Origin: a virus | Reading direction: 5' to 3' (one strand) | IMG/VR virus record: IMGVR_UViG_3300030442_000019 | Length of the DNA: 54,054 nt | Shown: piece after piece, positions 1 through 53,705 of the stretch | Numbering within the stretch: position 1 is the first letter of the stretch | Layout of the letters: each line of letters opens with the position of its first letter | Position numbers and translations under genes: made by a program | Notes under the pieces: model-generated | The model's input: only the letters and a program-made list of their open reading frames with translations | What the model was told of the DNA's origin: nothing | Database searches by the model: none

Positions 1-99
1 ACTTTATTAATGGCCGGAATCAGAATCTTTGCATCTTTTTTCCAATCCATAAGTTGCGGTTTTTTCTTATCTCCCTTAAATCCGCAGTCGATAAACTCT
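1..99. repeat. Terminal overlap: bases 1-99 are identical to 53956-54054
   Basis: Found by direct comparison of the window ends. The repeat lies inside one continuous ORF, so it reads as the assembly overlap of a circular or circularly permuted genome. Confidence 0.9.
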
Positions 100-335
100 T
101 TCGCCGTCTTTAAAGCTTCTTCCCAGTCTTCCATTGGAAGATTATCAAAGTCTTCGTAGAATATAGCCAGAATCGTTGTGTATATCTCTAAGTTTTTCTC
201 TTCTTCGGACATTCCGGCTACTATATCGGGATCATTAATAGCACAAAGAATATCTAACACGGCTCTGTAATCTGAGCGTATTCGATATTCTTTGCCGTTT
301 ACGTTAACGGATTTCGGAAGTTTCCAGACATCCAT
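1..335 (-). CDS. Tail assembly chaperone, Phage_Gp15-like (5' part; continues in frame into 53700-53955; 196 aa in total)
   Basis: The ATG at 335 overlaps the upstream stop (TAATG). My own translation, MDVWKLPKSVNVNGKEYRIRSDYRAVLDIL..., has no stop down to base 1 and joins ORF 53700-54005. The gene lies between the major tail and tape measure genes. Confidence 0.75.
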   Translation of the reverse strand, partial: MDVWKLPKSVNVNGKEYRIRSDYRAVLDILCAINDPDIVAGMSEEEKNLEIYTTILAIFYEDFDNLPMEDWEEALKTAKEFIDCGFKGDKKKPQLMDWKKDAKILIPAINK

Positions 336-778
336 TAGTTATGGTACTTGGCCACGTACTTATTTACACGGCGCTGTACCTTTGTTACGTTTGTGTTCAA
401 TTTTGTTTCAATGACTTTTGCAACACTGTCAATTACAATTTCGAGGAAAATTCTTCCATCATCCATTGGAGAAAACGGTCCGAGAACCTGGAAAAACGCT
501 TTTTCTGCATCTCCATTAATCAGATAAGACATTTTCTCTGCAATTTCCTTTTCTGCTTTTCTGGCAGCTTCAATGCTGTCATCTTCCGGCATCTTGTAAT
601 TTTTCCAAAATCGAACGACTTCTTCGTATCTGTCAACAATGTTAGTGTCAGTCGGTGCGAACACTATACTTCCAAGAGTTTCACCAAACTGGTTTTTGAT
701 CGGAATTTTGACTCGGCCATCATTTATCTTAATAACCAGTTCGCTATCATTTCTTTTTTTTGGTAACTTGTTGCTCAT
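335..778 (-). CDS. Tail assembly chaperone-like protein (by position)
   Basis: 147-aa ORF directly downstream of the major tail gene and coupled to the Gp15-like gene. Confidence 0.6.
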   Translation of the reverse strand: MSNKLPKKRNDSELVIKINDGRVKIPIKNQFGETLGSIVFAPTDTNIVDRYEEVVRFWKNYKMPEDDSIEAARKAEKEIAEKMSYLINGDAEKAFFQVLGPFSPMDDGRIFLEIVIDSVAKVIETKLNTNVTKVQRRVNKYVAKYHN

Positions 779-802
779 ATTATTCCTCCTGTTAATAAAG
801 CG

Positions 803-1339
803 TTACAGTACTTCTTTTCCTGTAGAAAGACTATGTGGAATTGCTCCGGCTGTAAATTCTGGGTTTCCAGAAGCGAGCGAAGTGGCACTTACATATCCCT
901 CTGTTCTCTTACCGTCAGAAGATACTTTAAACGGAATGTTTACGCCAGATGTATCTCCACCATAAGACTGAGGTTTTACCATAACCTCTTCGACATATGC
1001 AAGGTGGTTTTCCGCACTTGTATCTTCCACAAGGACTTCCAACATAAGTGTTTTGCAGTCCGCTCCTTTCAATCGTTTCATTGCAATATCCCTAATCTTC
1101 GGATACAGCTTTTTGTCCGGGTTTGCATAGTATGTATCTGCATCCATAGACGGTTCATATCCATTATCTGTTGTTTTTGTCTGACCAAGAATGTTCTTCT
1201 TCGTCTCTGTATCCGGGTTCAGATCAACCGACATATCGTCAATGTCATCACCAAGAATTTCCCACGTAGCACTTGCTACTGCCTGTTTGAAACTATAGTC
1301 CAGATAATGTGCGAGTGCTTCTCTACTAAGATTTCCCAT
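803..1339 (-). CDS. Major tail protein
   Basis: 178-aa ORF after the head-tail joining genes and before the chaperones and tape measure. Preceded by an RBS and the conserved 5'UTR motif. Confidence 0.7.
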   Translation of the reverse strand: MGNLSREALAHYLDYSFKQAVASATWEILGDDIDDMSVDLNPDTETKKNILGQTKTTDNGYEPSMDADTYYANPDKKLYPKIRDIAMKRLKGADCKTLMLEVLVEDTSAENHLAYVEEVMVKPQSYGGDTSGVNIPFKVSSDGKRTEGYVSATSLASGNPEFTAGAIPHSLSTGKEVL

Positions 1340-1350
1340 ATTATAATCCT

Positions 1351-1405
1351 TTCTACCGTTAGCTTTTTACGGTCAGCGAACATCTCTAATTGATGTCCGG
1401 TTAAT
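1351..1405 (-). promoter_or_regulatory. Two-hairpin 5'UTR motif, copy A (upstream of the major tail gene)
   Basis: About 80 percent identical to 53651-53705. Stems ACCGT/ACGGT and GGACATC/GATGTTC, with conserved linkers AACCGG and CGCTG, followed by AGAAAGGA and the ATG. Confidence 0.6.
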
Positions 1406-1919
1406 TAGTTCTTATGAATACATTTCTGTATTTAAGAGACATACTAATCACCCAGTCTTGCACATTGTTTTCGTAAGTTTTGTCAAGGTATGATGGTGTG
1501 ATTCTTGTAATCTCTTCTATTTTTCGTTCTTCTGTAAGTGTTGGGTAAGATGTAAGCCTATGCTTTTCGCCATCAATCACGACTGTTTGTCGTTCCAGCC
1601 ATTTACCTACACTATCAAGAAATTCCTTGATATCCGCTTTCATATTCGGAGAATCACGGGATGTCCTGTACACGATATAAAATGGGTAGTTGCAAAGCTG
1701 ATTCACCTTGCCTGTTACCGATTTTTTCTCCTGTGCAATCACCGCACCGGATACCGGATAGAACGCCATTCCATCATCTTCTTTCAGAGTGGAGAATTTA
1801 AACACTTCTCCGGTTTCCAATCCAGGATACTTATTCAGCAAATCTTTAAGTGCATTTGTTACAATGTCGTATCCGTCAACATCGTATTTCACTGTTTTTT
1901 TACTATCCACCGCCTGCAC
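1401..1919 (-). CDS. Tail completion / minor capsid-like head-tail joining protein
   Basis: 172-aa ORF in the connector gene run. Confidence 0.5.
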   Translation of the reverse strand: MQAVDSKKTVKYDVDGYDIVTNALKDLLNKYPGLETGEVFKFSTLKEDDGMAFYPVSGAVIAQEKKSVTGKVNQLCNYPFYIVYRTSRDSPNMKADIKEFLDSVGKWLERQTVVIDGEKHRLTSYPTLTEERKIEEITRITPSYLDKTYENNVQDWVISMSLKYRNVFIRTN

Positions 1920-2361
1920 GTTTCTTCACTCCTTTTACCCATGTATCACCAAATTCATCTTTAGCAGCATCAAACCAATGGTCTGTTGCAAAAGGATTTG
2001 GCACTTTCGAAAACTGGATATCACGGTCTGTCACGATCTTTTTTGCTTTTGGTCTCGCCCACGGTGAACCTGTTTCCTGGTCTACCATGACTTTTCCCAT
2101 GTACAAAAATCTTGCGTAAGGGCCATATCCGGCATAAACCTTTCCACTACCTTTCAAGGCTTCGTTCTGCGTATTGGTTGTATCAATCAGCATCCCGTCT
2201 CTTTGTGGAATATACTTTTTTGTGCCTGTCCATACCTGTTCATCTAACCAAAGTTGAGCGTCTTGGAATTGCTTTTCGAATCGGTCAAGATTCACATTCA
2301 CTTTGATGTCAGCTTCAACTATCGAGACGTTCGGAAAATGGAACATTCTACTACGTGCCAT
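1903..2361 (-). CDS. Head-tail joining protein (HK97 gp10-like by position)
   Basis: 152-aa ORF that overlaps its neighbours within the connector run. Confidence 0.5.
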   Translation of the reverse strand: MARSRMFHFPNVSIVEADIKVNVNLDRFEKQFQDAQLWLDEQVWTGTKKYIPQRDGMLIDTTNTQNEALKGSGKVYAGYGPYARFLYMGKVMVDQETGSPWARPKAKKIVTDRDIQFSKVPNPFATDHWFDAAKDEFGDTWVKGVKKRAGGG

Positions 2362-2823
2362 TTACTTTCCCCCTATCTCAAAATGCGGGATAAGTGTGTA
2401 TGTTCCGACATTGGTGATTAAGAATACATTGTCGTGATTTTTATTCATGTAATCATAAAAACCACCGTCTCTCCGGCTCTGATAGTCTTCATCCGATATC
2501 AGTCTTTCGTCATATTCGCCCTCAATGAAAAAGTCACTGCTTGCAAATGTGATGGTATGTCCAAGCGTATCGTTAATTTGTTTCGCCCATTTTTTAGGCT
2601 CAAGATACTTTTTGCCAGATACTACTTTTTCAGCGGATACCATGCGATACAGAACATGGAGCGTTGCCGTGTCAGCCGTATCAAGTCCTGTCTTTTCGAT
2701 GTTTGCGGATTTATCAACAATGAGTTGAACACCTTTAATTACGGTCGGATACCAAAATATTTCATCCTTTTGATTCACATATTTGTTGAATACAGTTATA
2801 GTTTTGTCATACATTGGTATCAC
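2362..2823 (-). CDS. Head closure / head-tail adaptor-like protein
   Basis: 153-aa ORF, contiguous with the next gene. Confidence 0.45.
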   Translation of the reverse strand: MIPMYDKTITVFNKYVNQKDEIFWYPTVIKGVQLIVDKSANIEKTGLDTADTATLHVLYRMVSAEKVVSGKKYLEPKKWAKQINDTLGHTITFASSDFFIEGEYDERLISDEDYQSRRDGGFYDYMNKNHDNVFLITNVGTYTLIPHFEIGGK

Positions 2824-2829
2824 CTCTCG

Positions 2830-2967
2830 TTAATAAAACTTCTTACCGCATTTTTCACACTTCCATATGTGCCTTGTTTCTTTTATCCCGTTTCCGATAT
2901 CTTCCAGATACGTTCCGGCATGGATTTTCTTTTTGTGTTTGCAAAATAATCTTTTAATAATTCTCAT
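2830..2967 (-). CDS. Small Cys-containing protein (45 aa)
   Basis: My own translation is MRIIKRLFCKHKKKIHAGTYLEDIGNGIKETRHIWKCEKCGKKFY. It fills the gap between two connector genes. Confidence 0.45.
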   Translation of the reverse strand: MRIIKRLFCKHKKKIHAGTYLEDIGNGIKETRHIWKCEKCGKKFY

Positions 2968-2970
2968 TGT

Positions 2971-3441
2971 TCAAATCCCTCTATATAGCAAGTACACTCC
3001 GTTATCATCGGTAACGTTAAAAAGATAGCTAACCGCTGCTTCAAGAAGTATTCTTTTCTCTTCTTGCACATTGGTAGCTGCTACGGTATACCGATTGCTC
3101 TGGCTGTTCCCGTTAGCGTAAGATATGCTTTCATTTCCAGAAGAAACAGAAGAGACGGTCTTATTTACGACCGTCCCATCTTCTCTCTGTATGGTTCCTA
3201 TGGCATCCATAGAAGCTTTTTTAGATTGATCTATCTTATACATTTCATCAGCTACTGCACATACAGCTTTTTGAACTTTTGTTTCTGCTCGCTCATTTTC
3301 TGGAAGCCCATCAACAAGGCGATCCATAGTGTAGTTGTCTATGCAGTCACTAGCACGTTCAGCATATTCACGAAATTCGCTTTCTGGAATTGTTTTCCCG
3401 AAAAATTTTTTTGTATAAAACTTATAATCTGTGTACGTCAT
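2971..3441 (-). CDS. Head-tail connector (gp6-like) protein
   Basis: 156-aa ORF downstream of the capsid gene. The N-terminus, YTDYKFY..IPESEF..YAERASDCID, is typical of connector proteins. Confidence 0.55.
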   Translation of the reverse strand: MTYTDYKFYTKKFFGKTIPESEFREYAERASDCIDNYTMDRLVDGLPENERAETKVQKAVCAVADEMYKIDQSKKASMDAIGTIQREDGTVVNKTVSSVSSGNESISYANGNSQSNRYTVAATNVQEEKRILLEAAVSYLFNVTDDNGVYLLYRGI

Positions 3442-3460
3442 AGTGTTTCACCTAATTTTC

Positions 3461-3604
3461 CTACTTTCTTGGATTCGATCTCGTCTTTGGCTTTACGTCA
3501 CTGACTTCTTTATATTTTTGTGGATTGTTTTCCATCAACTGAGCACTCGTTTCATGATCAGTTGATAAGATTCTTCCTGTTTCCAAGTCTTCAAACCGTC
3601 TCAT
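3461..3604 (-). CDS. Small hypothetical protein (47 aa)
   Basis: My own translation starts MRRFEDLETGRILSTDHETSAQLMENNPQKYKEV.... It begins 3 nt after the capsid stop. Confidence 0.4.
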   Translation of the reverse strand: MRRFEDLETGRILSTDHETSAQLMENNPQKYKEVSDVKPKTRSNPRK

Positions 3605-3606
3605 GC

Positions 3607-4458
3607 TTACTCACCTTTCTTGTTCTTGAAGATAAGGTCTGGCATTACAGATTTTGTTCCGTAATGGTAAAAGAGTTCGATGCCATATGCTTCTGAAAGA
3701 GGAATCTTCTCAGCACTGTATGGTGTGGATTTAACAGGCTGTGCGATAGCTCCATCCACCATCACGATCACATCAACGTCTGTCGGCATGTGCACGCATG
3801 AGAATGTTTTTACGCCATGATAAGCGTAGAACTCTTCGTCAGCCACGCCAACACCCGGAACTGTAACCTTGTCCAGATATGTGCGGATTTTTCCGTAGAA
3901 TTTTGGCGTACAGATCATGTTCATCATAGAACGTGGTACTCCGTCCACATATTCATTCTTGGTGGTTTCGCACTGCTGAATCATGGTTTCAGCCTGTTCC
4001 TCAATAGCTGTAATGCCTGTCAGATCAACTTCTGTCGCATCTGTTCCGGCAACTTTGAAGAACTCAGTGTCGAGTTCTGCGATCATTCTAAGTGCATGGT
4101 TTGCTGTTCTTTTTGCGATAAGTCCCTCTACTCCGAGAAGAGATACGTCTTTCTGTTCAACCTCTTCTACGATTTCCTTATCTACATCAATCGGAATCGT
4201 AACCGGCTTTCCTTTTACTCCATCACCTTTAGCTGCACCTCTGGCTGTTCCGTAATTCTTAGATGTCGCATTTGCGAATCGTTTTGCTTCTACGGTTCCG
4301 GCTGACGGATCACCGGAAAGTTCGGTATTCTTCATTTTTCCAGAAATAGTGTTCTTCTGGACGTTTTCAATGACCTTTCCGTACTCTTCTGCAAGAAGCA
4401 TTTTTCCGGTTGGGTCAAGTAACATGTTTAATGATGTAATTCTTGTTGTTTCTGCCAT
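3607..4458 (-). CDS. Major capsid protein
   Basis: 283-aa ORF immediately after the GP20-like scaffold gene, with a strong RBS. Confidence 0.8.
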   Translation of the reverse strand: MAETTRITSLNMLLDPTGKMLLAEEYGKVIENVQKNTISGKMKNTELSGDPSAGTVEAKRFANATSKNYGTARGAAKGDGVKGKPVTIPIDVDKEIVEEVEQKDVSLLGVEGLIAKRTANHALRMIAELDTEFFKVAGTDATEVDLTGITAIEEQAETMIQQCETTKNEYVDGVPRSMMNMICTPKFYGKIRTYLDKVTVPGVGVADEEFYAYHGVKTFSCVHMPTDVDVIVMVDGAIAQPVKSTPYSAEKIPLSEAYGIELFYHYGTKSVMPDLIFKNKKGE

Positions 4459-4465
4459 TTTTGTT

Positions 4466-4516
4466 CTCCTTTAATTCTTTAAGGTCAACGACTATCCTCT
4501 ATCGATAGCCGGTTCA
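4466..4516 (-). promoter_or_regulatory. Two-hairpin 5'UTR motif, copy C (upstream of the major capsid gene)
   Basis: Same architecture as copies A and B, with different stem sequences (CCTT/AAGG and CTATC/GATAG). The 9-nt and 7-nt loops and the linkers GGTCARCG and CCGGTT are conserved. Confidence 0.5.
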
Positions 4517-4526
4517 CAATATGGTT

Positions 4527-5135
4527 TTACCAAACAGTTCCAGGAACAAACGGCTCTGCTTTCTGTTCACTTCCACCTTTTTCTGTAGGTGTTGTGAATA
4601 CCGGTGGTGTCTTACCATCCGTCACGAAAGCATCTTTCTGAGATTCTTTCAGCTCTTTCATGTAATCATCAAGACCGAGAATCTTTTCACCCTCACGTTT
4701 CAGACCCTTGTCTTTAATCATGTTGATGATTCCTGTTTTTGCAAAATCAGAACTGAATTTCTCGCCCGCAAGAGCCTTTGTCAGAACGTCATTGAAGTCT
4801 CTTTCTTCAATCTTCTGGTTGTACTCTTTTTCACTGGCATCAAGCTTGTCTTTCCATTCTTTTTCTGCGTTCTCGGCTTTCGTCTTCCACTCATCACGTT
4901 CTCTTGTGATCGCATCGAAGTCTTTTCCTTCGAACCCGTCCAAAGTCTCTTTCGCTGTTTCATACTGTGTTTTAAAGTTGTCACGTTCCTGTGTCAGAGT
5001 TTCTACTTTTCGTGTCTGCTTATCATAGTCAGATACGCTTTTGTAATTCTCTTTCACTGCATCTTCGATTGTCTTTTTCTGCTCATCTGTAATTTCAAGA
5101 CCAGCATCCTTGATAATCTGAATAATATTTTTCAT
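4527..5135 (-). CDS. Scaffolding protein (Phage_GP20-like)
   Basis: Charged coiled-coil ORF. The start is refined to MKNIIQII, which has the RBS GAGGAGG. It lies upstream of the capsid gene. Confidence 0.75.
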   Translation of the reverse strand: MKNIIQIIKDAGLEITDEQKKTIEDAVKENYKSVSDYDKQTRKVETLTQERDNFKTQYETAKETLDGFEGKDFDAITRERDEWKTKAENAEKEWKDKLDASEKEYNQKIEERDFNDVLTKALAGEKFSSDFAKTGIINMIKDKGLKREGEKILGLDDYMKELKESQKDAFVTDGKTPPVFTTPTEKGGSEQKAEPFVPGTVW

Positions 5136-5216
5136 GTTGCATATCCTCCTCAACGTCTCTTATTAACCGCTTCGTCTGCGGTAGGGATTCAGGCAGATGA
5201 ACCTCTGCCGGGGTAA

Positions 5217-5309
5217 TCGGGATACACGGAATCGAACCGTGGACATAAGTCTTTTTTTTCAAAGAGATGATGGATTGTGACTTTTGTTCTACCATTGAAC
5301 TATATCCCG
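5217..5309 (-). tRNA. tRNA-like element with an expanded (27-nt) anticodon loop; possible pseudo-tRNA or atypical tRNA
   Basis: Acceptor stem CGGGATA/TATCCCG, D arm GTTC-AATGGTA-GAAC and T arm CACGG-TTCGATT-CCGTG. The anticodon stem AAGTC/GACTT encloses 27 nt instead of 7. Confidence 0.5.
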
Positions 5310-5689
5310 TTAGTGGTTGGTGTAAGTGTTCCCTCTATACAGTTCCAACCACTGTTACGGCTATTTGACGGTCAATCTGCATATTGTTCCGTAACTAACT
5401 CTATACAGAAAAAGGATAGCCGGAAATGAATCCATGCACCATACTGTGCACTATCCTTTGCGGAATGAAAATTTATCATATTATATCTTTAGGAGGTAAC
5501 ATAAGATGACGATTCCCCAAGTCCGCAACCTTAGGGGAAAGCCTAACGGGCGTTTGACCGCCCTTTAATCAGCATTCCGCTATTAGGCTTTATTGAAAGG
5601 AGGTGTATCAAGCAAGAAAAGAAAATGTCCTATGTGATTCACCGTATATATCGTAACATTAATATATATAGTACTCCGTACCCATGTTT

Positions 5690-6112
5690 TTACATTTCCG
5701 CAAGCTTCTTGATTTGCCTTTGAATCTCTTTCCGTTCTTCTGCAAAATCTGAATCCATCACCATAGAGGAAAGCATGTCGTACACTTCTACCATAAGTTT
5801 CCCGACACTTTCCATCAGTTTGTCTCTGTGTGCTTGATCTCCGTTCTGCTGATACATCTCTTTCGCCATAATGTACTGGTCGTATAGCGCATCAATGTTT
5901 TTATCGTACTTTCCGTTACTGTATTTCTTGATAAGGTTTTCCGATGCATCCGCAATCATCCCCGGTACGCTTTCGCATTCCAAAGATTTCATATTACACA
6001 ATGTAGATGTAATCATGTACATTGCCTGTAAGTTAGACATATTTAAGTCTTTCTTTGCAGATGCTTTCTCGCGTTCAAGCTGTTCTTCCAAAATCTTTTT
6101 GATCTCGCTCAT
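5690..6112 (-). CDS. Hypothetical helical protein
   Basis: 140-aa ORF with an RBS. It is the last gene of the accessory island. Confidence 0.65.
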   Translation of the reverse strand: MSEIKKILEEQLEREKASAKKDLNMSNLQAMYMITSTLCNMKSLECESVPGMIADASENLIKKYSNGKYDKNIDALYDQYIMAKEMYQQNGDQAHRDKLMESVGKLMVEVYDMLSSMVMDSDFAEERKEIQRQIKKLAEM

Positions 6113-6723: not shown

Positions 6724-7152
6724 CTATGAGAGCTTTTTGATGATGATATTCGCATCCTTAACCAATGTGTCAACTGTGCCAACGTTGCCAACCGATATAG
6801 TGACGCTACTTCCGGCCGGAACTGCAATCAATGTAGCTGCACCGACATTCTGATACACATTTGCCGTTGCTACTGTATAGTCCATTTCCGTACCAGAAAC
6901 CGGTTCCCCGTTCTGTTTGATAGATAACGCTACCGCTCCTATTGCAGATGCCGTAACGTTTCCGTTAAACTCAATTTCGACTGCCATCGGCAGATTTCCA
7001 CGGTTTGTGATTTCAAAAAGTCCACTGCCGTTGTCATGTGCAAGCCACCCTGTGTTACAAGCACATCTACGGCTTTTCACTCTTGTTTCCGTAAATAATA
7101 CATTCTGATTTGTTGCTACTGTCTGAGCATTTTTAGCAATAGAATTTAACAT
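6724..7152 (-). CDS. C1q/TNF-like (BclA C-terminal-like) beta-sandwich protein (tentative)
   Basis: The start is refined to MLNSIAKNAQ, which has the RBS AAAGGAGA. The alternating beta pattern ends in ANIIIKKLS. Confidence 0.35.
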   Translation of the reverse strand: MLNSIAKNAQTVATNQNVLFTETRVKSRRCACNTGWLAHDNGSGLFEITNRGNLPMAVEIEFNGNVTASAIGAVALSIKQNGEPVSGTEMDYTVATANVYQNVGAATLIAVPAGSSVTISVGNVGTVDTLVKDANIIIKKLS

Positions 7153-7214
7153 ATTTTTTCTCCTTTCTAAAAAAGAGAGCAAGCGCATGCCTACTCTCTT
7201 TTATGTTCGCAAGA

Positions 7215-8939: not shown

Positions 8940-9602
8940 TCATTCTGCAAATACCCAATCTTCCGCAAGCATATCTGTCTGAGACGGTGCCCACGGCACT
9001 TTATTTTTAGGCGAATAAGGATTTTCTGTCTGTAATCCAGTAGTGTTGATATATATGAACGAATGCGTCATATAATTGAATGCTTCAATAGTTGTTCTTG
9101 CTGTAACTCTGTCGTATTCTTTCACTTCTTCACTTAGTTCAGAATACGGAATCATATCCGGGTGATCTGTAACTCCTTGTTTTTTCTTTTCTTCCCACCA
9201 TGCGTTATGCACTGCTTCTGCAATAGTTTCAAGATTGACTTCTGGCGAATACATTTCCAGATAGATTCCTTTACCATTCCAACCTTTACGAGCTACCTTA
9301 AGTCCTCTTTTTAGATAACGGATAGCATCACCGAATCCAAATGTTGACTGACCGCCGAGAATACCGCAATTCTCTTCATCTGCAATCATCCAGTCATCCC
9401 TCTGCGTGTGCATGAAAGTATATTCCACTCTCTGCGTTTCACGAATATCAAGAACATCTCCCTGTCCTTTGTCGGAATCCTTTGGTCTGCAATGAATCAT
9501 AATCGTCTTTTTATCATCATCCCAACACCAGTAACCATTCCATCCAGGCAATTTCACTTTCGCACCTTGTTTCATTAATTCAAACGCTTCTTTAAAAATC
9601 AT
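8940..9602 (-). CDS. Tandem DUF2829 (Tad2-like) protein with an inserted RyR-like segment
   Basis: Two DUF2829-type N-terminal motifs: FKEAFELMKQGAKVKLPGW and FGDAIRYLKRGLKVARKGWNGKG. The C-terminus has WAPSQTDMLAEDW. The inserted segment is AVHNAWWEEKKKQG..IPYSELSEEVKEYDR. Confidence 0.6.
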   Translation of the reverse strand: MIFKEAFELMKQGAKVKLPGWNGYWCWDDDKKTIMIHCRPKDSDKGQGDVLDIRETQRVEYTFMHTQRDDWMIADEENCGILGGQSTFGFGDAIRYLKRGLKVARKGWNGKGIYLEMYSPEVNLETIAEAVHNAWWEEKKKQGVTDHPDMIPYSELSEEVKEYDRVTARTTIEAFNYMTHSFIYINTTGLQTENPYSPKNKVPWAPSQTDMLAEDWVFAE

Positions 9603-9604
9603 AT

Positions 9605-10066
9605 TTATTCCTCCACTAATTCAAATCTGTACTTCTGCTTCACATTCGGGTATTTCTTCCTGTCTACTTTGCTTACGAACATTCCGTAAGGTCTGCACCA
9701 CACGCCATTAGAGCATTCGTAAACTACCTTGAACTGTCCCGGCATTTCGCTATCTTGTGCAATATACAGAACTTTCACTGTTTCGCCCTTGAAGTGCCTG
9801 TACACCTGTCCGGGTTCAACTCTTCTATTGCTCACTGTCGGCGGTTCGCTGTTGAAATACTTCTCACATTCTGCCAAATCGCAATTCTCTTGCATGAGTG
9901 GATGCTTTTCATCCAGCTTCTTAATCTCTGCTTTCTGTACGTGAATATGCTGTCCTACAAGTGGAAATCCACATCCGTAAAGCATTTTCGCCTTAATGTG
10001 GTGTGGCTCAAGTCTTCCTGTCGGGTCTATGAGATATCCACTTATTTTAAAAATCTTAGGTATCAT
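9605..10066 (-). CDS. DUF1653-like protein
   Basis: C-terminal motif YRHFKGETVKVLYIAQDSE..VVYEC..GVWCRPYGMF. Confidence 0.5.
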   Translation of the reverse strand: MIPKIFKISGYLIDPTGRLEPHHIKAKMLYGCGFPLVGQHIHVQKAEIKKLDEKHPLMQENCDLAECEKYFNSEPPTVSNRRVEPGQVYRHFKGETVKVLYIAQDSEMPGQFKVVYECSNGVWCRPYGMFVSKVDRKKYPNVKQKYRFELVEE

Positions 10067-10070
10067 AGAA

Positions 10071-10697
10071 TCACCTCTCCAATCTTATAATTGTGTGAAA
10101 TTCTTTTTCAGATAAGGCACTTTCAGTCACGAGCCAAAGGCTATCGTCAGCAATATTCCTAGAAGCATATACTTTGAATAAAAGTCCAGAAACAATAACA
10201 TTTTGGGATTTATTTATCATTGACAAACCGTCAAGACTTTTTTTAGGGACAGCAAACGACAGAGTATATGTACTTTCTGCACCGGTTAAGAGCTTTTGAT
10301 AGTCCATGTGCTCAGAAATAATTGTTTCCCCAGTTTCATAAAATTTAATATTCCACCCAATACGGTTTTTGAGATCAATCATTTCATCTGCCGTAATGTT
10401 CGGCGTTTCATCGACTACCGTTTCCTCTGCCGGATACATTTCCCAATCCTCAGCAAGCATATCTTCTTGTGTTGGTGTCCAGTTTGGCTGAAAGCTTCCT
10501 TTTCGCGTATAACCCATAATGCAGTCCGAAAAACATTCTTCTTCTGGTAGAATTGCAAGAAACGTTTTTGTTGTTAAACCTTTGTTTTTTCCAATAAAAA
10601 TAAACTGTTTTCTCCCATTAAAAAAGTTTTCTTTCCATACATTACGTGTAACTTTCTTTCCCTTTTTCATGCATTTTATGGCTTCTCCGAAGTTCAT
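10071..10697 (-). CDS. DUF2829 (Tad2-like) N-terminal domain protein with an unknown C-terminal domain
   Basis: Motifs MNFGEAIKCMKKGKKVTRNVW and WTPTQEDMLAEDW. Confidence 0.55.
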   Translation of the reverse strand: MNFGEAIKCMKKGKKVTRNVWKENFFNGRKQFIFIGKNKGLTTKTFLAILPEEECFSDCIMGYTRKGSFQPNWTPTQEDMLAEDWEMYPAEETVVDETPNITADEMIDLKNRIGWNIKFYETGETIISEHMDYQKLLTGAESTYTLSFAVPKKSLDGLSMINKSQNVIVSGLLFKVYASRNIADDSLWLVTESALSEKEFHTIIRLER

Positions 10698-10900: not shown

Positions 10901-11262
10901 AATTCCTTTGGTTTCTTGTCCGTCATAGCATTTACAAGCTCTTCCCGAGTTTTTTTTAAACCCTCAATGTTATTCCCTGTGATTTTGTTTTCGATCAAAT
11001 TAAACATACTTCTCATTAATAGATTCATATCATCCCTCGTATTCCTTATGTTCTTATAATCATTATCAAGTTTCTGATTAATCCCTGTGATAGATGTTTC
11101 AATGTTCGTTATTCGCTTTTCAATCTGTTCTATACGGTTGTCCTGTTTTTCTTTTGGTGCTTTCCATGATTTGTACCACCCGGAAAGCACCGCAACAGCA
11201 CCGCCGACAACAGATATAGCACCGCATATAGCAAGTATCTGTGTTATTAGTTCCATATTCAC
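10897..11262 (-). CDS. Membrane-anchored coiled-coil protein
   Basis: 121 aa with an N-terminal TM segment. GTGA overlap with the upstream gene. Confidence 0.55.
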   Translation of the reverse strand: MNMELITQILAICGAISVVGGAVAVLSGWYKSWKAPKEKQDNRIEQIEKRITNIETSITGINQKLDNDYKNIRNTRDDMNLLMRSMFNLIENKITGNNIEGLKKTREELVNAMTDKKPKEL

Positions 11263-12485
11263 TTTTCCTTTGAATTGATATATCTTTGTGCTGCTTTTGC
11301 TGATCTAACAGCTTGTGACCTATCCCACTGTGCTACACGTAGCCGTTCCGAATATTCTTTAAGACCATTATCTTTGCAGTAATCACGATACTGCTTATTC
11401 TGCCGTCTGAGTACCGCTGATTTGCGGTCATACATTTGTTGCAATTCGAATTTAAGCTTATCATCTCCGCTTGCATCTATAGCAGTCTGCAAATTCTGAA
11501 TCTCTCTCTTGCTGTTGCGAATGCGTCTTTCCATAAGCCGTTGCTTTTTCGCACGCTCTTCCGCTTTGATATTGTCTTCGCCAGAAAGGTTGATATCTGC
11601 ATACGGATTGTTTTCACCGTCACCGGATCCGAAAGAGTGCCGACAGTTCACGCCACACAACCCTGTCACTGTTCCGTAGCCTGTTGATGTTCGGAAGTCC
11701 GAGAACCTCTTGTCTTTGCCTGTCCTGGAATAAAATTTGCCTTGCCACCAAAAATGATTCGTCGGATTGTTGCCACCATCACCAATTCGTGCTCCTACAT
11801 GTGCAGATACCAAGATAGTATCCCATTCTAATTCTTCCATTCGTTTTAGTGCAATTGCTCCGGCACACTGGCTTATCCCTGTGCGGACAGTCATCATTGT
11901 GGCTGATTCAATGCTCATTTCTCTACCGGACGGATAGGATACTTTAACACCTTGCTTTACAATCCTGTCAACAGCATCTCTAACAGCCTGTGTGTATGAT
12001 ACAGCACCGCTTGATGCCATGCGGTAAGCTGTGTCGACCTCTTTCAAAAACAACTTCTGCGCTTCATCTGCCGTTGTTCGTGTAAGGTTTCTCCATTCTC
12101 CACACGTAACGTTATAATCTCTTTCCAGTATTCTGAGCAATGTCGGAGATTGCAGCAAGGGCGTAGGTGATAGTCCTACCGCCCTATATATTGCATCGTC
12201 TCTCTCGATAGCTTTTATACCGGCTTCTTCAAATGCGCTTTTCAGCTCGCTCTCTTGCTTCTTCGTTTTGTCAGCGATCTCTTTTTGTATGTCTTCCAGT
12301 AAGTACCCGGATTCTTGTAACACCAGTATCTGCCACCTGTCCGTAGCCGTAAGGAGATAATCTTCTCCACGGCCTATACGCACCATTATACGTTCAACGA
12401 TCATGTCCATGATATTCTTGTGCATATCCGATGTTATCTTTTCCGCACCCTCGGTCACATGAAAGAGATATTCTGGTGTAAGCAT
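11259..12485 (-). CDS. Head morphogenesis protein (SPP1 gp7 / Mu F-like)
   Basis: 408 aa with the MuF-type motif CGVNCRHS and a basic coiled-coil tail. Confidence 0.8.
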   Translation of the reverse strand: MLTPEYLFHVTEGAEKITSDMHKNIMDMIVERIMVRIGRGEDYLLTATDRWQILVLQESGYLLEDIQKEIADKTKKQESELKSAFEEAGIKAIERDDAIYRAVGLSPTPLLQSPTLLRILERDYNVTCGEWRNLTRTTADEAQKLFLKEVDTAYRMASSGAVSYTQAVRDAVDRIVKQGVKVSYPSGREMSIESATMMTVRTGISQCAGAIALKRMEELEWDTILVSAHVGARIGDGGNNPTNHFWWQGKFYSRTGKDKRFSDFRTSTGYGTVTGLCGVNCRHSFGSGDGENNPYADINLSGEDNIKAEERAKKQRLMERRIRNSKREIQNLQTAIDASGDDKLKFELQQMYDRKSAVLRRQNKQYRDYCKDNGLKEYSERLRVAQWDRSQAVRSAKAAQRYINSKEK

Positions 12486-12570: not shown

Positions 12571-12864
12571 TTATTCATCCTTCCCAATCTGCTTAATAAT
12601 CTGATTAACGTATGTACTCAGTCCGGCTACCATGATGCCTTGTACTATAGACGTGAACAGTGCCATAAAAACGTTTTTCATGCTGTCCAAATCGCAAGTT
12701 GCTGTTACATACATTCCGCAAATAATAATTCCAATACCTCCGAGAGAGAGTGGAATGTCTTTATCCTTAATTCTCTTTGAACTTTTCATCCATTTCCCAA
12801 GAAAATACAAGGCAAAAGAAACCACCATTAACTCCGGCTTTACATAACTAATAATCTGTTCCAT
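12571..12864 (-). CDS. Holin (LL-H / Hol44-like)
   Basis: 97 aa with multiple TM segments and a charged C-terminus. RBS AAAGGAGG. Confidence 0.65.
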   Translation of the reverse strand: MEQIISYVKPELMVVSFALYFLGKWMKSSKRIKDKDIPLSLGGIGIIICGMYVTATCDLDSMKNVFMALFTSIVQGIMVAGLSTYVNQIIKQIGKDE

Positions 12865-12919: not shown

Positions 12920-13312
12920 TTATACCTCTTCCCATCCATACACGCCCGGTTCCCAGACATTCCCGTCTGCCGTGCTAATCCATGTCTTGCCATTGTGTGT
13001 TACCTTGTCTCCTTTGGCGTAAGGGTTGGTGCTGTCTGGCTGTTCCCATTCTGGCACTGTACTACTATCTGGAATAAGTACCTTGGCGAACAAAGACGGC
13101 GCATCCGGCGGTGTCCATGTCTCTTGGCTTGTATGGGCTTGTAATACCTTGTAAATGGTGCCATTATACTCCAACCGCTTTCCAACTACATATTCCTTTC
13201 CAGACTGCCATTTCTCCACAAAGTCTGGATATTCAAGAATCTGTTCATCGGTCATGTTGGCTGTCTGGTTTTCCAACAACTTCCGCAACTGCTCTACTTG
13301 TTCTCTTGTCAC
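12920..13312 (-). CDS. Protein with two CBM5/12-like carbohydrate-binding repeats
   Basis: Start refined to the GTG in a GTGA overlap. Repeats are YVVGKRLEYNGTIYKVLQAHTSQETWTP and YAKGDKVTHNGKTWISTADGNVWEPG. Confidence 0.6.
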   Translation of the reverse strand: MTREQVEQLRKLLENQTANMTDEQILEYPDFVEKWQSGKEYVVGKRLEYNGTIYKVLQAHTSQETWTPPDAPSLFAKVLIPDSSTVPEWEQPDSTNPYAKGDKVTHNGKTWISTADGNVWEPGVYGWEEV

Positions 13313-13602
13313 TGTACCACCCCCATTATGATATTGAGTGCTTCTTCTGCACTTAAATCTGGCTCTGGATAGACTGGGTTGTCTACCAGTGTCCACACCT
13401 GCCTAATCGCATTCTCTTCCTCTTCCCAACTGGATTCCCAGTGCTTACCCTCTGTTACCTCAATAGGCATATCTGTGTACATCACAGGCTTGTAGCCTAA
13501 CTGTTCCAGTTCTTCCGGGAGCGGATTGTTGATTGTCTTGCCATCCAAAGTTATCGTCTTCGGTGCACTGTGCAAGAATCCGTTTTGTAGTTTTGCGTGC
13601 AT
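13309..13602 (-). CDS. Hypothetical protein (tail-fibre-associated, by position)
   Basis: 97-aa ORF with RBS AAAGGAG. Confidence 0.6.
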   Translation of the reverse strand: MHAKLQNGFLHSAPKTITLDGKTINNPLPEELEQLGYKPVMYTDMPIEVTEGKHWESSWEEEENAIRQVWTLVDNPVYPEPDLSAEEALNIIMGVVQ

Positions 13603-20519: not shown

Positions 20520-20552
20520 CTTTCTTTACCTCCTGTAATGTTCTCTGTTTTT

Positions 20553-20593
20553 TTAACTGTCTTTATTATAGCATAGTGGTGTCCACTAGTCAA
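20553..20593 (-). promoter_or_regulatory. Consensus sigma-A-type promoter with an embedded palindromic operator (copy 1)
   Basis: On the minus strand: TTGACT, a 17-nt spacer, then TATAAT. The spacer contains the 15-bp palindrome TAGTGGACACCACTA. The 41-bp block is identical to 21471-21511. Confidence 0.8.
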
Positions 20594-21018: not shown

Positions 21019-21441
21019 TTAAATCATTATGCATGTTTCGTTTTCGCCCTCGTAATTGTCTTCCGCTTCTTCCGCTTCTTCCAGGCTTGAGCAGATCGCT
21101 ATTGTTTCATGGCTAGGTATTTCAACGACTTCAATTTTCATCTCTGTGCTTTCTAATGTGTCAATAAAATCTGTCTGTACAAATTTGCTTTCGTCTTCGT
21201 CATATTCAAATTCATTTTCTTCAATTACATACTCTTCAACCTTGTAGAATGTCATTCCGTGGCAAGAAAATTTGCTAACATCTGTTTTACGTTTTGCAAG
21301 TTCCTTTTTCGCTTCCTCCAGTGTATCGAATGTTTTTATATATTCCGGCGAATCGTCAAAAGCCGTGCATCCTTCTTCAATTTCTTTTCTATCTTTATAC
21401 TTAATTTCTGCCGTTCTTTTTACTAAATCATATTTTTTCAT
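21019..21441 (-). CDS. Highly acidic protein (anti-defence / DNA-mimic candidate)
   Basis: 140-aa ORF with RBS AGGAGGAA, driven by promoter copy 2. Confidence 0.7.
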   Translation of the reverse strand: MKKYDLVKRTAEIKYKDRKEIEEGCTAFDDSPEYIKTFDTLEEAKKELAKRKTDVSKFSCHGMTFYKVEEYVIEENEFEYDEDESKFVQTDFIDTLESTEMKIEVVEIPSHETIAICSSLEEAEEAEDNYEGENETCIMI

Positions 21442-21470
21442 TTTTCTTCCTCCTGTGATGTGTTCCTTTC

Positions 21471-21511
21471 TTAACTGTCTTTATTATAGCATAGTGGTGT
21501 CCACTAGTCAA
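21471..21511 (-). promoter_or_regulatory. Consensus sigma-A-type promoter with an embedded palindromic operator (copy 2)
   Basis: Identical 41-bp block. The -35 is at 21506-21511, the -10 at 21483-21488 and the palindrome at 21492-21506. Confidence 0.8.
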
Positions 21512-21687: not shown

Positions 21688-23043
21688 TTAATATATGCTA
21701 AAATGTATGTCTATGTCATCTTCTGTGATAACCACCTTTTCAACACACTCTTTTAGCACCTTGTTTTTCTCGGAATCCGTCAGTGTATCCCACACGTTGG
21801 ACATCTCTTTTATTTTCTCTATTTTTTCTCCCCGTCCAGCTTTCTCCCGGATGTCTTCTGCCTTTAGTTCTTCCTGTAGATTTTTCAGTTTTTTTTCTTC
21901 TGTCTGGATAACATCAAAAAGTGTATCTGTACCGGAACTACCGCTTGCATACAATGTGTATAGGCGTTTCAGTTTTGCTTCGCTTAGTGATATCTCTTTT
22001 TCTATCATCTTCCTGGTGCTTTCGGATTCATTCTCTTTTTCTTCGACATTAACGATGAATCTTTTAAAGCAGTCCTCTACTTCTTTTTCTACCACATCTG
22101 CCCGCACCTTTTTATTCTTGCAAGGGTTCCCTGTCTTAGATATATGCTCTTTTTCCTTGTACTGTGAGTAACATACTATCTTGGTGTACTTTCCCCACTT
22201 TTGCATCCGCATTTTGGTGCCACATTTTCCGCAGTAACACAAACCGGTAAGCATATGCTTGTTGCTTACATAAGCATTTGTGGATCTCTTTTTTATCTCT
22301 TCCTGTACTTCGTAGAATAGTTTTTCGTCTATGATTGGTTCATGCAAGCCTTGGTATGTTTTTCCTTTATATTGTATTTTACCTACATAAGCTATTCGCC
22401 TAATAATGTTCGATACAAGCTTCTCTGAATGCATCCCGAGGATTTTTTGAATCCTATCACACGAATATCCGTCCCGGAACATCTGAAAGATAGCTTTTAC
22501 CTTTTCCGCTTCTTCCGGGATGATATGTAATATCCCATCGTTCCTGTCGTACCTATATCCGTACGGTATCGTACCACCACCCATCCACAGTCCACGCTTT
22601 ACACGCTCCACCATCCCGGCTCTTGTACGCATATAGATAACCTCACGCTCATACTGCCCCATGACCGCATTAACGCCCAGCATCACACGATCCATCGGTG
22701 TCTCATTCCGCAAATCCTCTGTAGCCGATACTACCTCTACATTGTATTTTGGTAAGAGCTTACTCACAAGCGTAAGAGTATCTACAACATCACGGCTCAT
22801 TCTGTCAAGCTTATAGATGTATACTGCCTGTATTTCTCCGGCTTCTGCATCTTCCAGAAGTTTCTGTATGTTCGGTCTTTGGATATTGCTCCCGGAATAT
22901 CCCCCGTCTACATACCATCTGGCTATCTTCACGCCCCTTTTCTTGGCAAGTTCCTTTATCTTGTCTTCTTGGACATCAAGACCATACTTTTCGGCCTGTG
23001 CTTCTGTAGACACTCTCATATAACCTACATTTAATTTTTTCAT
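21688..23043 (-). CDS. int: Large serine recombinase (integrase)
   Basis: The resolvase-type N-terminus is GYMRVSTEAQ...YKLDRMSRD. It also has a recombinase domain, a Cys-rich zinc ribbon and a coiled coil. Start refined to MKKLNVGY. Confidence 0.9.
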   Translation of the reverse strand: MKKLNVGYMRVSTEAQAEKYGLDVQEDKIKELAKKRGVKIARWYVDGGYSGSNIQRPNIQKLLEDAEAGEIQAVYIYKLDRMSRDVVDTLTLVSKLLPKYNVEVVSATEDLRNETPMDRVMLGVNAVMGQYEREVIYMRTRAGMVERVKRGLWMGGGTIPYGYRYDRNDGILHIIPEEAEKVKAIFQMFRDGYSCDRIQKILGMHSEKLVSNIIRRIAYVGKIQYKGKTYQGLHEPIIDEKLFYEVQEEIKKRSTNAYVSNKHMLTGLCYCGKCGTKMRMQKWGKYTKIVCYSQYKEKEHISKTGNPCKNKKVRADVVEKEVEDCFKRFIVNVEEKENESESTRKMIEKEISLSEAKLKRLYTLYASGSSGTDTLFDVIQTEEKKLKNLQEELKAEDIREKAGRGEKIEKIKEMSNVWDTLTDSEKNKVLKECVEKVVITEDDIDIHFSIY

Positions 23044-23106
23044 GTCAATTCTCCTTTCAATTAAAAAAGAATTGACCAAGATTCTATCAAGGTCAATTCT
23101 AAAATA

Positions 23107-31681: not shown

Positions 31682-31774
31682 TGGTACTCCTTTATATTTA
31701 CCTCTATGAGGACGGTCCGTTTCCTTTTTGTATCTTTCCCGATTTCGGCTTGATGCCTACTCTGACTCCCTGTT

Positions 31775-31848
31775 ATACAGAATGGGCGCACCCCGTTACT
31801 GTTGTTGTAGTTATTGTTGTTGATGTTACCGGACGGAGAAACAACCGC
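31775..31848 (-). repeat. DGR template repeat (TR), non-coding
   Basis: The minus-strand sequence is GGTTGTTTCTCCGTCCGGTAACATCAACAACAATAACTACAACAACAGTAACGGGGTGCGCCC. The core has 19 adenines, mostly in AAC codons. Confidence 0.9.
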
Positions 31849-32246: not shown

Positions 32247-32842
32247 TAATCATCATCTTCCTCACAAGATTCAAAGATTGAAGAGGAAAAGATACAAACT
32301 GGGCGCACCCCGCCACTGTAGTAGTAGCGACCGTAGCTGATGCTACCGGACGGAGAAACAACCCGAACAAAGGTGTCATCATTATTACAAGCCGTGCTGT
32401 CTGGTGTAAGTGTCCACCACCATTTACCCCTATTCGGCAGGAACTCTCTATACTTCCGGTATTCATCCACGGAAATAAGCGAAACATAATCTCTGCAAGT
32501 TCCATATTCCGTCTGACCATCTAACGAAAGTAAATTGCGTTCAAACTCGACCAGTGAATCTGCCCCTAATTCACTTTCAATCTTTTTGCGGAGATCAGTG
32601 TTTAACTCATTTCTCAAATCACTGGATTTCCAATCGTTGCAATTATCATCAAACTCTCTGTCTCCTCCGTAAAAATCTTCCGAAATTGCAAAATATCCTT
32701 TTTCAAGCTTGTCCAACACCAGCCACTTAATACCGGCAACCTCAATTGTCTTTCCGATTTCCGGCTGATATTTTTTTCTTAACTGTTCAAAAACTTCATT
32801 AAGATTTTTAAGGTTTTCTCCGAATTCTTTTAACGTCATCAT
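32246..32842 (-). CDS. DGR target protein 2 (DUF6273-like / C-type-lectin-fold C-terminus)
   Basis: 198 aa. The C-terminus WWWTLTPDS...VVSPSGSISYGRYYYSGGVRPVCIF contains VR1. Confidence 0.85.
   Translation of the reverse strand: MMTLKEFGENLKNLNEVFEQLRKKYQPEIGKTIEVAGIKWLVLDKLEKGYFAISEDFYGGDREFDDNCNDWKSSDLRNELNTDLRKKIESELGADSLVEFERNLLSLDGQTEYGTCRDYVSLISVDEYRKYREFLPNRGKWWWTLTPDSTACNNDDTFVRVVSPSGSISYGRYYYSGGVRPVCIFSSSIFESCEEDDD
32292..32363 (-). repeat. DGR variable repeat VR1
   Basis: 11 differences from TR, all at TR adenines. The flanks GGTTGTTTCTCCGTCCGGT and GGGGTGCGCCC are identical. Confidence 0.9.
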
Positions 32843-53639: not shown

Positions 53640-53650
53640 GTATTGTCCTT

Positions 53651-53705
53651 TCTACCGCTAAATATTTGCGGTCAGCGGGCATCTCCACATGATGCCCGGT
53701 TAATT
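53651..53705 (-). promoter_or_regulatory. Two-hairpin 5'UTR motif, copy B (upstream of the tape measure gene)
   Basis: Stems ACCGC/GCGGT and GGGCATC/GATGCCC. It shows compensatory changes relative to copy A. Confidence 0.6.

Follow-up and report, generated by a model that had tools for sequence, protein, structure and literature searches.

A single late operon must yield head, tail and tape-measure proteins in very different amounts, and how temperate phages of the dominant gut Firmicutes (Lachnospiraceae and their relatives) achieve this is a question about which almost nothing is known. The viral contig IMGVR_UViG_3300030442_000019, all 54,054 nucleotides of which we refer to as the window, poses it in concrete form. 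An earlier reading of the sequence (the original prediction) had pointed to three minus-strand intergenic elements of one two-hairpin design, located upstream of the capsid, major-tail and tape-measure genes. We asked whether these elements are more than chance resemblances, where else they recur, and what they might do. Our analysis indicates that they belong to a motif of about 55 nt, consisting of two adjacent hairpins directly 5' of the ribosome-binding site, that is very probably a functional structured RNA within the mRNA. It represents a new class of RNA motif of siphovirus-type phages and prophages of Clostridia, mainly Lachnospiraceae.

A 32-nt pattern drawn up from the three copies (AACCGGNNATCN7GATNNYCGYTGACC) matches the window at 1371-1402, 4483-4514 and 53670-53701 only, and the same three sites are returned when up to three mismatches are allowed. 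None of 100 dinucleotide shuffles of the window contains a match. Two covariance models, R1 and R2, run on the window with filters off, find exactly the same three copies (84.0, 81.7 and 68.9 bits with R1; 75.0, 71.9 and 52.2 bits with R2), and the next-best scores are 10.7 and 14.6 bits. Pattern and models together confirm the three elements originally proposed, and the search for homologues that had been suggested as a check, made with sequence patterns, yielded them in many phages and prophages. The sense strands of the three copies fold with z-scores of -2.5, -3.5 and -3.3, the sense fold being at least as stable as the antisense fold in two of the three. All three copies, designated A, B and C, lie on the minus strand in short intergenic gaps of the virion-gene module, and each ends in a Shine-Dalgarno sequence (SD) 6-7 nt 5' of an ATG. 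Their parts, with hairpins 1 and 2 abbreviated as H1 and H2 and open reading frame as ORF, are as follows.

1345-1404, minus strand: copy A, the whole motif including its SD, identified by pattern match, R1 (81.7 bits) and R2 (75.0 bits)
1377-1399, minus strand: copy A H1, CGGACAUC / GAUGUUCG, 8 bp with one G·U, from the sequence, the RNAfold minimum free energy structure and covariation
1385-1391, minus strand: loop of copy A H1, AAUUAGA, 7 nt
1353-1376, minus strand: copy A H2, core ACCGU / ACGGU pairing 1369-1373 with 1355-1359, from the sequence and RNAfold
Within copy A H2, minus strand: its loop, AAAAAGCUA, 9 nt
1347-1354, minus strand: copy A SD, AGAAAGGA, abutting H2 without a gap; ATG at 1337-1339
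803-1339, minus strand: the gene 3' of copy A, an ORF of 178 aa in major-tail position, phrog_3099 by PHROG match
53644-53703, minus strand: copy B, the whole motif, 5' of the tape-measure gene at 50883-53639 (918 aa), from pattern match, R1, R2, RNAfold and PHROG
53676-53698, minus strand: copy B H1, CGGGCAUC / GAUGCCCG
53654-53672, minus strand: copy B H2 core, ACCGC / GCGGU
53646-53653, minus strand: copy B SD; ATG at 53637-53639
4457-4516, minus strand: copy C, the whole motif, 5' of a 283-aa ORF at 3607-4458, from pattern match, R1, R2 and RNAfold
4489-4511, minus strand: copy C H1, CGGCUAUC / GAUAGUCG
4481-4484 with 4468-4471, minus strand: copy C H2, CCUU paired with AAGG
4466-4471, minus strand: copy C SD, AAGGAG, which is the 3' arm of H2 itself; ATG at 4456-4458

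The stems stand as they were first described and can be refined in two respects. Every copy has an 8-bp H1 (CGGNNAUC / GAUNNYCG), whose third pair is G·U in copies A and C, and RNAfold extends H2 by two pairs, C29-G52 and U30-A51, around a bulged purine, with which H1 and H2 abut without a linker. The extension positions are paired in 93% and 90% of homologues, with little covariation and in a sample biased by the search pattern; that the predicted extension is real is plausible, and hairpins that abut in this way probably stack on each other. The refined layout reads AC, H1 (8 bp), CU(R)ACC-NN, an A-rich loop ending AGUUA, NN-GGUAG, and then the SD.

Covariation among homologues provides the strongest evidence that this fold exists. 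Across 44 close copies, 98.1% of cells are paired and four pairs show double changes. In an alignment of 78 distinct diverse copies fitted by covariance model, 97.3% of cells are paired, compared with 71.9% after shuffling and 24-53% when the partner columns are slid, and compensatory double changes are found at 12 of the 13 pairs. As an independent test, RNAalifold applied to a plain MAFFT alignment of 35 diverse copies recovered both hairpins, with compensatory changes at all 12 predicted pairs. The covarying stems of the original prediction are borne out by these figures, and so is its argument, made from a single G-U pair, that the element acts in the mRNA sense: of 971 pair cells, 68 hold a G·U or U·G pair that would turn into an A·C mismatch on the opposite strand, and the structure thus belongs to the mRNA-sense RNA. 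At the third pair of H1, 41 of the 78 sequences have G·U, while many capsid copies have A·C. To judge from the aligned sequences, selection maintains this fold on the mRNA strand.

The same data make it extremely unlikely that the motif works as DNA, whether its role were that of a late promoter or operator or that of a recombination 'linker' between modules. TTGACC or CTGACC, which resembles a -35 element, is present in the motif, and the motif does lie at the boundaries of non-homologous gene modules, where linkers could promote mosaicism. However, the stems covary with pairing kept and with G·U pairs that mismatch on the other strand, there is no -10 element at a workable spacing, the ATG is too close, and the orientation always matches that of the downstream gene. 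A sigma-70 promoter was considered separately and rejected, with none reported at copies A or C and with too short a distance from TGACC to the ATG for a -10 element and a leader. An intrinsic terminator was likewise rejected: no T-run follows either hairpin, and a terminator scan reports nothing at the three sites.

Conservation is unevenly distributed over the fold. The upper stems of both hairpins vary freely, and the near-invariant parts are the basal three pairs of each helix, the 5' AC, the CU(R)A junction, the A-rich loop 2 with its (G/A)UUA end, and the UAG after H2. Copy A and six carrier loci, a triple tandem array among them, were scanned with Rfam 15 at E-value cut-offs of 10 or 5 without a relevant match. 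A literature search with the motif's sequence strings found nothing relevant, nor did the strings occur in the 200 of the 408 supplementary files of PMC8040213 that were searched. The original prediction had not recognised the motif as a described one, and with no family in Rfam 15 and no match to its sequence strings in the literature that statement holds; relative to Rfam 15 and the searched literature, the motif is undescribed.

Many invariant junction and loop nucleotides in an RNA of some 50 nt could point to a small ribozyme or a ligand-binding riboswitch aptamer of a new class. Self-cleaving ribozymes are also known in tandem arrangement and in phage context, and the motif bears a superficial CUGA...GAAA likeness to the hammerhead core and, in its A-rich tail, a likeness to preQ1-I. 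Against this, no Rfam ribozyme or riboswitch matches even at E ≤ 10, no pseudoknot or loop-loop covariation is apparent by inspection, and metabolite control of virion genes would have no obvious rationale, all of which makes such a role very unlikely. As for the two specific candidates, a hammerhead ribozyme is rejected (the sequence CUGA-CC(stem)GG-UAGAAA is missing positions G8 and A9, and there is no Rfam hammerhead match), and preQ1-I is ruled out from sequence and Rfam. Pseudoknots or kissing loops between 5' UAAC and GUUA of loop 2, between loops 1 and 2, or between 5' ACCG and the 3' arm of H2 were also rejected, their partners, judged by eye, not covarying across diverse copies.

The motif is not confined to the window: more than 190 viral contigs of IMG/VR carry it. 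When IMG/VR was scanned with the exact pattern, 103 stretches matched, containing 152 instances and 44 distinct sequences, and a second scan, anchored only on TGACC...GGTAGAAAGGA, matched at least 120 stretches and added contigs whose H1 sequences are wholly different and still paired. Among bacterial genomes, a scan of GTDB with one genome per species matched 48 stretches. About 33 of these have the full two-hairpin architecture and are in the main prophages, nearly all of them from Clostridia and most from Lachnospiraceae. The carriers include the cultured strains Blautia producta DSM 2950, Lachnotalea glycerini DSM 28816 and Butyrivibrio sp. AE3009, and also Lactonifactor and Bilifractor, with further ones in Acetatifactor, Roseburia, Ruminococcus, Faecousia and Acutalibacteraceae; the labels outside Clostridia are those of three metagenome-assembled genomes (MAGs) named 'bacterium' or 'Bacillota bacterium' and one Muribaculaceae-labelled MAG. 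The remaining stretches, about 15 and mostly from other phyla with a few Clostridia MAGs, have no hairpins and are chance matches, as expected for the pattern. A megablast search with window positions 1-6000 found no match among cultured and GenBank phages, and blastn with the consensus 60-mer found only records of uncultured faecal 'Bacteriophage sp.'; therefore no studied model phage carries the motif.

One carrier departs from the phage context. In Butyrivibrio sp. AE3009 (locus L216, 7405-7437; also L244) the motif belongs to a conjugative element, where a VirD4/TraG-like coupling-protein gene lies on one side of it and a Maff2 gene on the other. It is not a general leader of Maff2 genes in such elements: one of 80 Maff2 loci has the motif and the other 79 do not.

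Which genes does the motif accompany? The contig is circular, bases 1-99 being repeated exactly at 53956-54054 as a 99-bp terminal repeat, so that the tail-chaperone ORF ending at 53700 runs on across the ends of the window, and almost all window genes are on the minus strand according to the ORF listing. Copy A lies between a tail-completion gene and the phrog_3099 gene, with the upstream TAA (1401-1403) overlapping the 5' AAC of the motif; copy B lies between the second tail-chaperone ORF and the tape-measure gene, with the upstream TAA (53700-53702) again overlapping the 5' end of the motif; and copy C lies between the scaffold gene (phrog_194) and ORF 3607-4458, which occupies the capsid position and has no PHROG or Pfam match of its own. 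Elsewhere the motif precedes three non-homologous families of major-tail genes (phrog_158, phrog_3099, phrog_88), at least three non-homologous families of major-head genes (phrog_247, phrog_422, phrog_29), and tape-measure genes, phrog_1194 (DUF6711), phrog_16490, a large tail protein gene and a lysin-like gene. With so many non-homologous genes downstream, the association is therefore with late structural cistrons, whose virion products are abundant or large, and not with one protein family. The original placement at the 5' ends of late cistrons stands, while its wording that these are the most highly expressed ones fits only in part, given the low-copy tape-measure protein here and, in relatives, the lysin and tail genes and genes of unknown function.

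The motif is always intergenic and always in the orientation of the downstream gene. Of 85 unique instances, 30 have a long upstream ORF that stops no more than 5 nt from H1, 31 have one that stops farther upstream, and in one the ORF stops inside the motif; that is, it ends before H1 in 61 of the 62 cases with a long upstream ORF. A terminator-like hairpin with a U-run lies directly upstream of the motif in 14 of the 85. These ORF ends and terminators just upstream indicate that the motif sits at cistron or transcript boundaries. A trap of stop codons in all frames was considered and rejected, the conserved UAA, UGA and UAG not falling in three different frames and the upstream ORFs ending before H1.

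Hairpins near terminators also bring to mind a signal that acts as nascent RNA on RNA polymerase, as a put-like processive antiterminator for a long late operon. The two covariation-supported hairpins resemble the two-stem-loop cis architecture of HK022 put, and several carriers have intrinsic terminators inside their structural modules. Yet the terminators seen lie immediately upstream of the motif and not downstream, and there are no convincing terminators 3' of the three copies in the late region of the window. Nor are the copies promoter-proximal as put is: they are intercistronic and abut an SD, and a role in transcription would leave their strict register with SD and ATG unexplained. We regard antitermination as highly improbable.

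This register with the translation signals is a constant of the motif's terminal copies. The SD either abuts H2 without a gap (GGU-AGAAAGGA) or is itself the 3' arm of H2, and the ATG follows 5-9 nt on. In the 44 unique copies, whose retrieval pattern left out the 3' half of the motif, GGU(A/G)GAAAGGA is found in 36 and AAGGAG within H2 in 8. Firmicute 16S rRNA ends in ...CCUCCUUUCU-3', and AGAAAGGA is complementary to this extreme 3' end.

Tandem arrays show that the two-hairpin core and the translation signals can come apart. Four loci, L212, L243 (Blautia producta DSM 2950), L237 and L119, carry two to three copies spaced about 20 nt apart before a major-tail gene, and the array in B. producta DSM 2950 (NZ_CP039126) has three. 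Only the last copy of an array keeps an SD and an ATG; the earlier copies keep the core, with what appear to be decayed remnants of SD and start codon. Retention of the core without SD or ATG indicates that it is selected independently of an adjacent start codon. In the leaders of L243 (minus strand, offset 2279), L212, L226, L237, L105 and L133, a terminator is followed by AGAAAGG(C/TT)GGTG(A/G)TCC, which complements the 16S rRNA 3' end of Firmicutes almost perfectly and resembles a STAB-SD, and a conserved ATCTCCC..GGG block lies 3' of it. For the whole block (AGAAAGG..GGTGATCC..ATCTCCC), neither a sigma-54-like promoter nor a leader ORF fits consistently. The tandem leaders, some of which open with this 16S 3'-end complement, look as if built for high expression or stability.

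What, then, might the motif do? We tentatively favour the explanation that it is a cis-acting structured leader within the late polycistronic mRNA that protects the downstream segment and hands the SD to the ribosome, a proposal whose functional steps we infer from sequence and context. The motif would mark the start of an independently expressed cistron, the leader being cut or started just 5' of H1, after an upstream stop codon, a terminator hairpin or, in the scaffold leader described below, a tRNA-like processing signal. Its compact stacked fold, near the new 5' end, would block 5'-to-3' decay of the RNase J type and would keep the abutting AGAAAGGA ready for the 30S subunit, while the invariant junction and loop-2 nucleotides would most likely be the surface on which the reader of the motif docks, be it a protein or the 30S platform. 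Efficient production of head, tail-tube, tape-measure and similar proteins would then not depend on the fate of the upstream cistron. There is a precedent in Bacillus, where 5'-proximal hairpins and bound ribosomes protect mRNAs from RNase J1. In favour of such a leader count selection for structure in the mRNA sense, the fixed geometry with SD and ATG, an association that crosses protein families, the position at cistron boundaries, the tandem leaders, the tRNA-like element ahead of the scaffold leader, and an SD that is predicted to be slightly more accessible with the native motif than with a shuffled one. The copy in a conjugative element argues that a phage-specific partner is not strictly needed.

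Several observations weigh against this explanation. The roughly 15 invariant unpaired or basal nucleotides (AC, CUGA, loop-2 AAAAAGUUA and UAG) exceed what a stabiliser or insulator needs; sequence conservation this strong argues that a specific partner reads the motif, and a protective leader names none. Tape-measure protein is made in low copy. Tandem arrays contain upstream copies that lack both SD and ATG, and in copy C, where the SD is the 3' arm of H2, folding would be predicted to mask the SD, not to present it. The position of some copies directly 3' of terminators implies read-through or an unseen promoter. Finally, predicted SD accessibility is 0.595 with the native motif and 0.553 with shuffled sequence, a small gain from sequences that are not independent of one another. 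An insulator that merely keeps the SD open was rejected on account of this weak effect, and copy C, the SD-less tandem copies and the marginal gain in accessibility together indicate that SD presentation alone is insufficient.

The same excess of conservation would be accounted for by an operator, at which a dedicated RNA-binding regulator, encoded by phage or host, recognises the junction and loop 2 and represses or activates translation of virion genes; late genes could in this way be silenced in the lysogen or timed in the lytic cycle. A dense set of invariant unpaired and basal nucleotides beneath freely covarying upper stems is typical of N-boxB and of coat-protein operators. The SD overlaps or abuts H2, the multi-copy and tandem layout suits cooperative binding, and true matches occur only in mobile elements of Clostridia and not before host genes. 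On the other hand, neither the genes near the terminase nor those of the accessory block in the window matched an RNA-binding protein or regulator, the structural modules of the carriers are unrelated, and a copy in a conjugative element is awkward for a phage-specific protein. A CsrA-type signature is patchy: most copies have GGA in the SD, yet loop 1 (plus 2 nt) contains it in only 32 of 85 unique instances, and with the loop GGA not conserved a consistent CsrA site seems improbable. On balance, a dedicated operator is rather unlikely, but the strong sequence conservation keeps it a serious rival.

A broader formulation encompasses parts of both explanations. The motif may be the cis site of an unrecognised form of post-transcriptional control of virion proteins, horizontally shared among phages of gut Clostridia and occasionally conjugative elements, and would then be either a compact, exonuclease-resistant fold that docks the 30S subunit (a bacterial counterpart of viral exonuclease-resistant RNA (xrRNA) elements or elements like internal ribosome entry sites (IRES)) or the operator of a dedicated RNA-binding late regulator. 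We consider this formulation possible, if doubtful.

Evidence on how late mRNAs in these phages might acquire new 5' ends comes from the scaffold leader, for which the original prediction had proposed a looser fourth copy of the motif. The relevant elements are as follows.

5168-5215, minus strand: a two-hairpin leader (the 'fourth version'), GGCAGA / UCUGCC and ACCGC / GCGGU, located 3' of a tRNA-like element and 5' of the scaffold SD
5217-5309, minus strand: the tRNA-like element, 52.6 bits with the Rfam tRNA model

The two hairpins of the fourth element are present, but its membership of the motif family was not upheld: neither R1 nor R2 detects 5168-5215 at E<10 in the window, and its fold is no better than that of shuffles (z -0.98). 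The element is conserved in relatives, with compensatory changes in stem 1 (G-C to A-U) and stem 2 (C-G to U-A). It starts 5 nt after the tRNA-like element, which was the only match in a gathering-threshold Rfam scan of the window and was missed by ARAGORN. The acceptor, D and T arms of the tRNA-like element are normal, and its anticodon loop has about 29 nt. In a relative, L020, a tRNA-like element (6962-7030) with a 4-nt anticodon loop is followed by GP20-b (6894-6957, minus strand; 40.2 bits against a gathering score of 36.2) and then by the scaffold gene. The match in L020 shows that the GP20-b model is able to detect its family; in the window, 5125-5225 has no Rfam match at E ≤ 10, GP20-b included. 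Given that GP20-b occupies the equivalent site in L020, the fourth element is best seen as a leader in the GP20-b position, not as a copy of the motif, and a tRNA-like element followed by a GP20-type leader seems to be a conserved arrangement.

With an anticodon loop of 4 or about 29 nt, the tRNA-like element probably cannot decode. It may instead be a punctuation signal for RNase P and RNase Z in the scaffold-capsid leader, making the 5' end of that leader, and a non-decoding element of this kind suggests that late mRNAs here are processed at cistron starts. Loop length differs again in the relatives L101 and L040, whose tRNA-like elements carry variable inserts. Upstream of the scaffold gene lie about 540 nt of non-coding sequence (5154-5689, minus strand), which include, besides the tRNA-like element and the two-hairpin leader, a sequence near 5485 resembling TATAAT; the head genes are likely to have their own promoter and leader here.

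Processing could also be the function of the motif itself, as an endonucleolytic signal that splits the late polycistron into segments of differing stability, like the RNase III sites of T7 and SP82 or RNase Y sites. As with the T7 R-sites and the SP82 sites, it recurs in several copies between the cistrons of a phage late operon, with both sequence and structure conserved; its sites are cistron boundaries, beside A/U-rich single-stranded stretches and 3' terminator-like hairpins, and the tRNA-like element in the scaffold leader hints at processing. High abundance in small-RNA-seq, reported for a 64-nt candidate RNA that may be the same as the motif (DNAVirus_6425, see below), would also suit such a role. 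Its helices are too short, however: H1 has 8 bp and H2 5-7 bp, or about 15 bp even if coaxially stacked, short of the helix of about 20 bp that is typical of RNase III sites. Sequence conservation of this degree exceeds the needs of general RNases (Y, E/G, J), and a cut within H2 would part the SD from its protecting structure. We judge a processing signal to be unlikely, though still a serious rival.

Other features of the window lie apart from the motif.

8940-9602 and 10071-10697, minus strand: a pair of proteins carrying Tad2-like (Thoeris anti-defence 2) domains; they belong to an inserted accessory block that separates the minor-capsid gene (11259-12485) from the scaffold gene
9605-10066: DUF1653, in the same accessory block
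6724-7188: a BclA_C-like protein, also in the block
12571-12864: a holin, also in the block
12920-13396: a CBM5/12 protein, also in the block
8905-8877, minus strand: a strong terminator in the block
20549-20593 and 21467-21511: 45-bp direct repeats, 98% identical, flanking ORF 21019-21441 and adjoining a large serine recombinase or integrase (21688-23079)
31751-31846, 32268-32363 and 32865-32960: three copies of a 96-nt repeat, 65-78% identical, at the ends of three adjacent minus-strand ORFs, which are probably paralogous genes

Conserved across phages with unrelated structural genes and present in cultured strains as well, the motif offers a concrete handle on how a late operon is dosed. 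Rfam could take it up as a well-supported candidate family. Should it turn out to be a portable module for expression or stability, it would be directly useful for engineering expression in gut Clostridia; if a specific factor binds it, it would reveal a new phage regulatory circuit, and, should it be an operator, its conserved junction and loop would define a new mode of RNA recognition.

How does the motif compare with known systems? HK022 put and lambda nut (boxA/boxB) are likewise cis-acting phage RNAs that combine hairpins with conserved single-stranded sequence and occur in a few copies per genome, but they belong to enterobacterial phages, are promoter-proximal and upstream of terminators, and keep no fixed register with SD and ATG. 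The RNase III sites of T7 (R0.3-R18.5) and of the Bacillus phage SP82 are repeated, conserved stem-loops between cistrons, including 5' of the capsid gene, and such intercistronic sites shape mRNA stability and translation. They are single long irregular hairpins of at least about 20 bp, whereas the present motif consists of two short hairpins with a conserved junction and is found in another host clade.

Closer to the proposed protective leader are the mRNA stabilisers of Firmicutes (the STAB-SD of cryIIIA, the SP82 polypurine sequence, and the ermC and aprE hairpins), which share with the motif a 5'-proximal structure, a strong SD-like sequence complementary to the 16S 3' end, or both, and which shield the mRNA behind them from 5'-to-3' decay. 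The motif's AGAAAGGA and hairpins would be compatible with STAB-SD logic. Unlike the motif, the known stabilisers have no conserved junction or loop and do not form a homologous family, and the SD of the motif belongs to an actual start codon. In plastids, intercistronic expression elements and the sites of PPR10 and HCF107 set the 5' ends left by processing, stop a 5'-to-3' exonuclease (RNase J) and expose the downstream ribosome-binding site, much as is proposed here, but they are single-stranded protein footprints in organelles, whereas the motif is a structured element of bacterial phages.

Among computationally predicted RNAs, 10,006 viral candidates have been catalogued from IMG/VR (Fremin et al., 2023; PMC10690425), the same viral-contig resource in which the motif occurs, and the motif may already be among them; the catalogue assigns no function or mechanism. 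One entry, DNAVirus_6425, is 64 nt long, comes from Caudovirales of Blautia and Ruminococcus, and is highly abundant in gut small-RNA-seq (PMC10690425); the motif may be this entry or another one. The nearest relatives in kind are GP20-a and GP20-b (RF02991, RF03003), candidate cis-regulatory leaders upstream of GP20 genes in Firmicutes phages (Weinberg et al., 2017; PMC5737381), which resemble the motif as two-hairpin leaders immediately 5' of a late structural (scaffold) gene. With this precedent, structured leaders before phage structural genes are already a known kind. The motif differs from GP20-b in its consensus, and the Rfam models miss copies A-C at E ≤ 10; copies A, B and C are not upstream of the scaffold gene, and only the fourth element precedes phrog_194. 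GP20 motifs are tied to one gene family, whereas the motif described here is multi-copy, sometimes tandem, and stands before many non-homologous genes.

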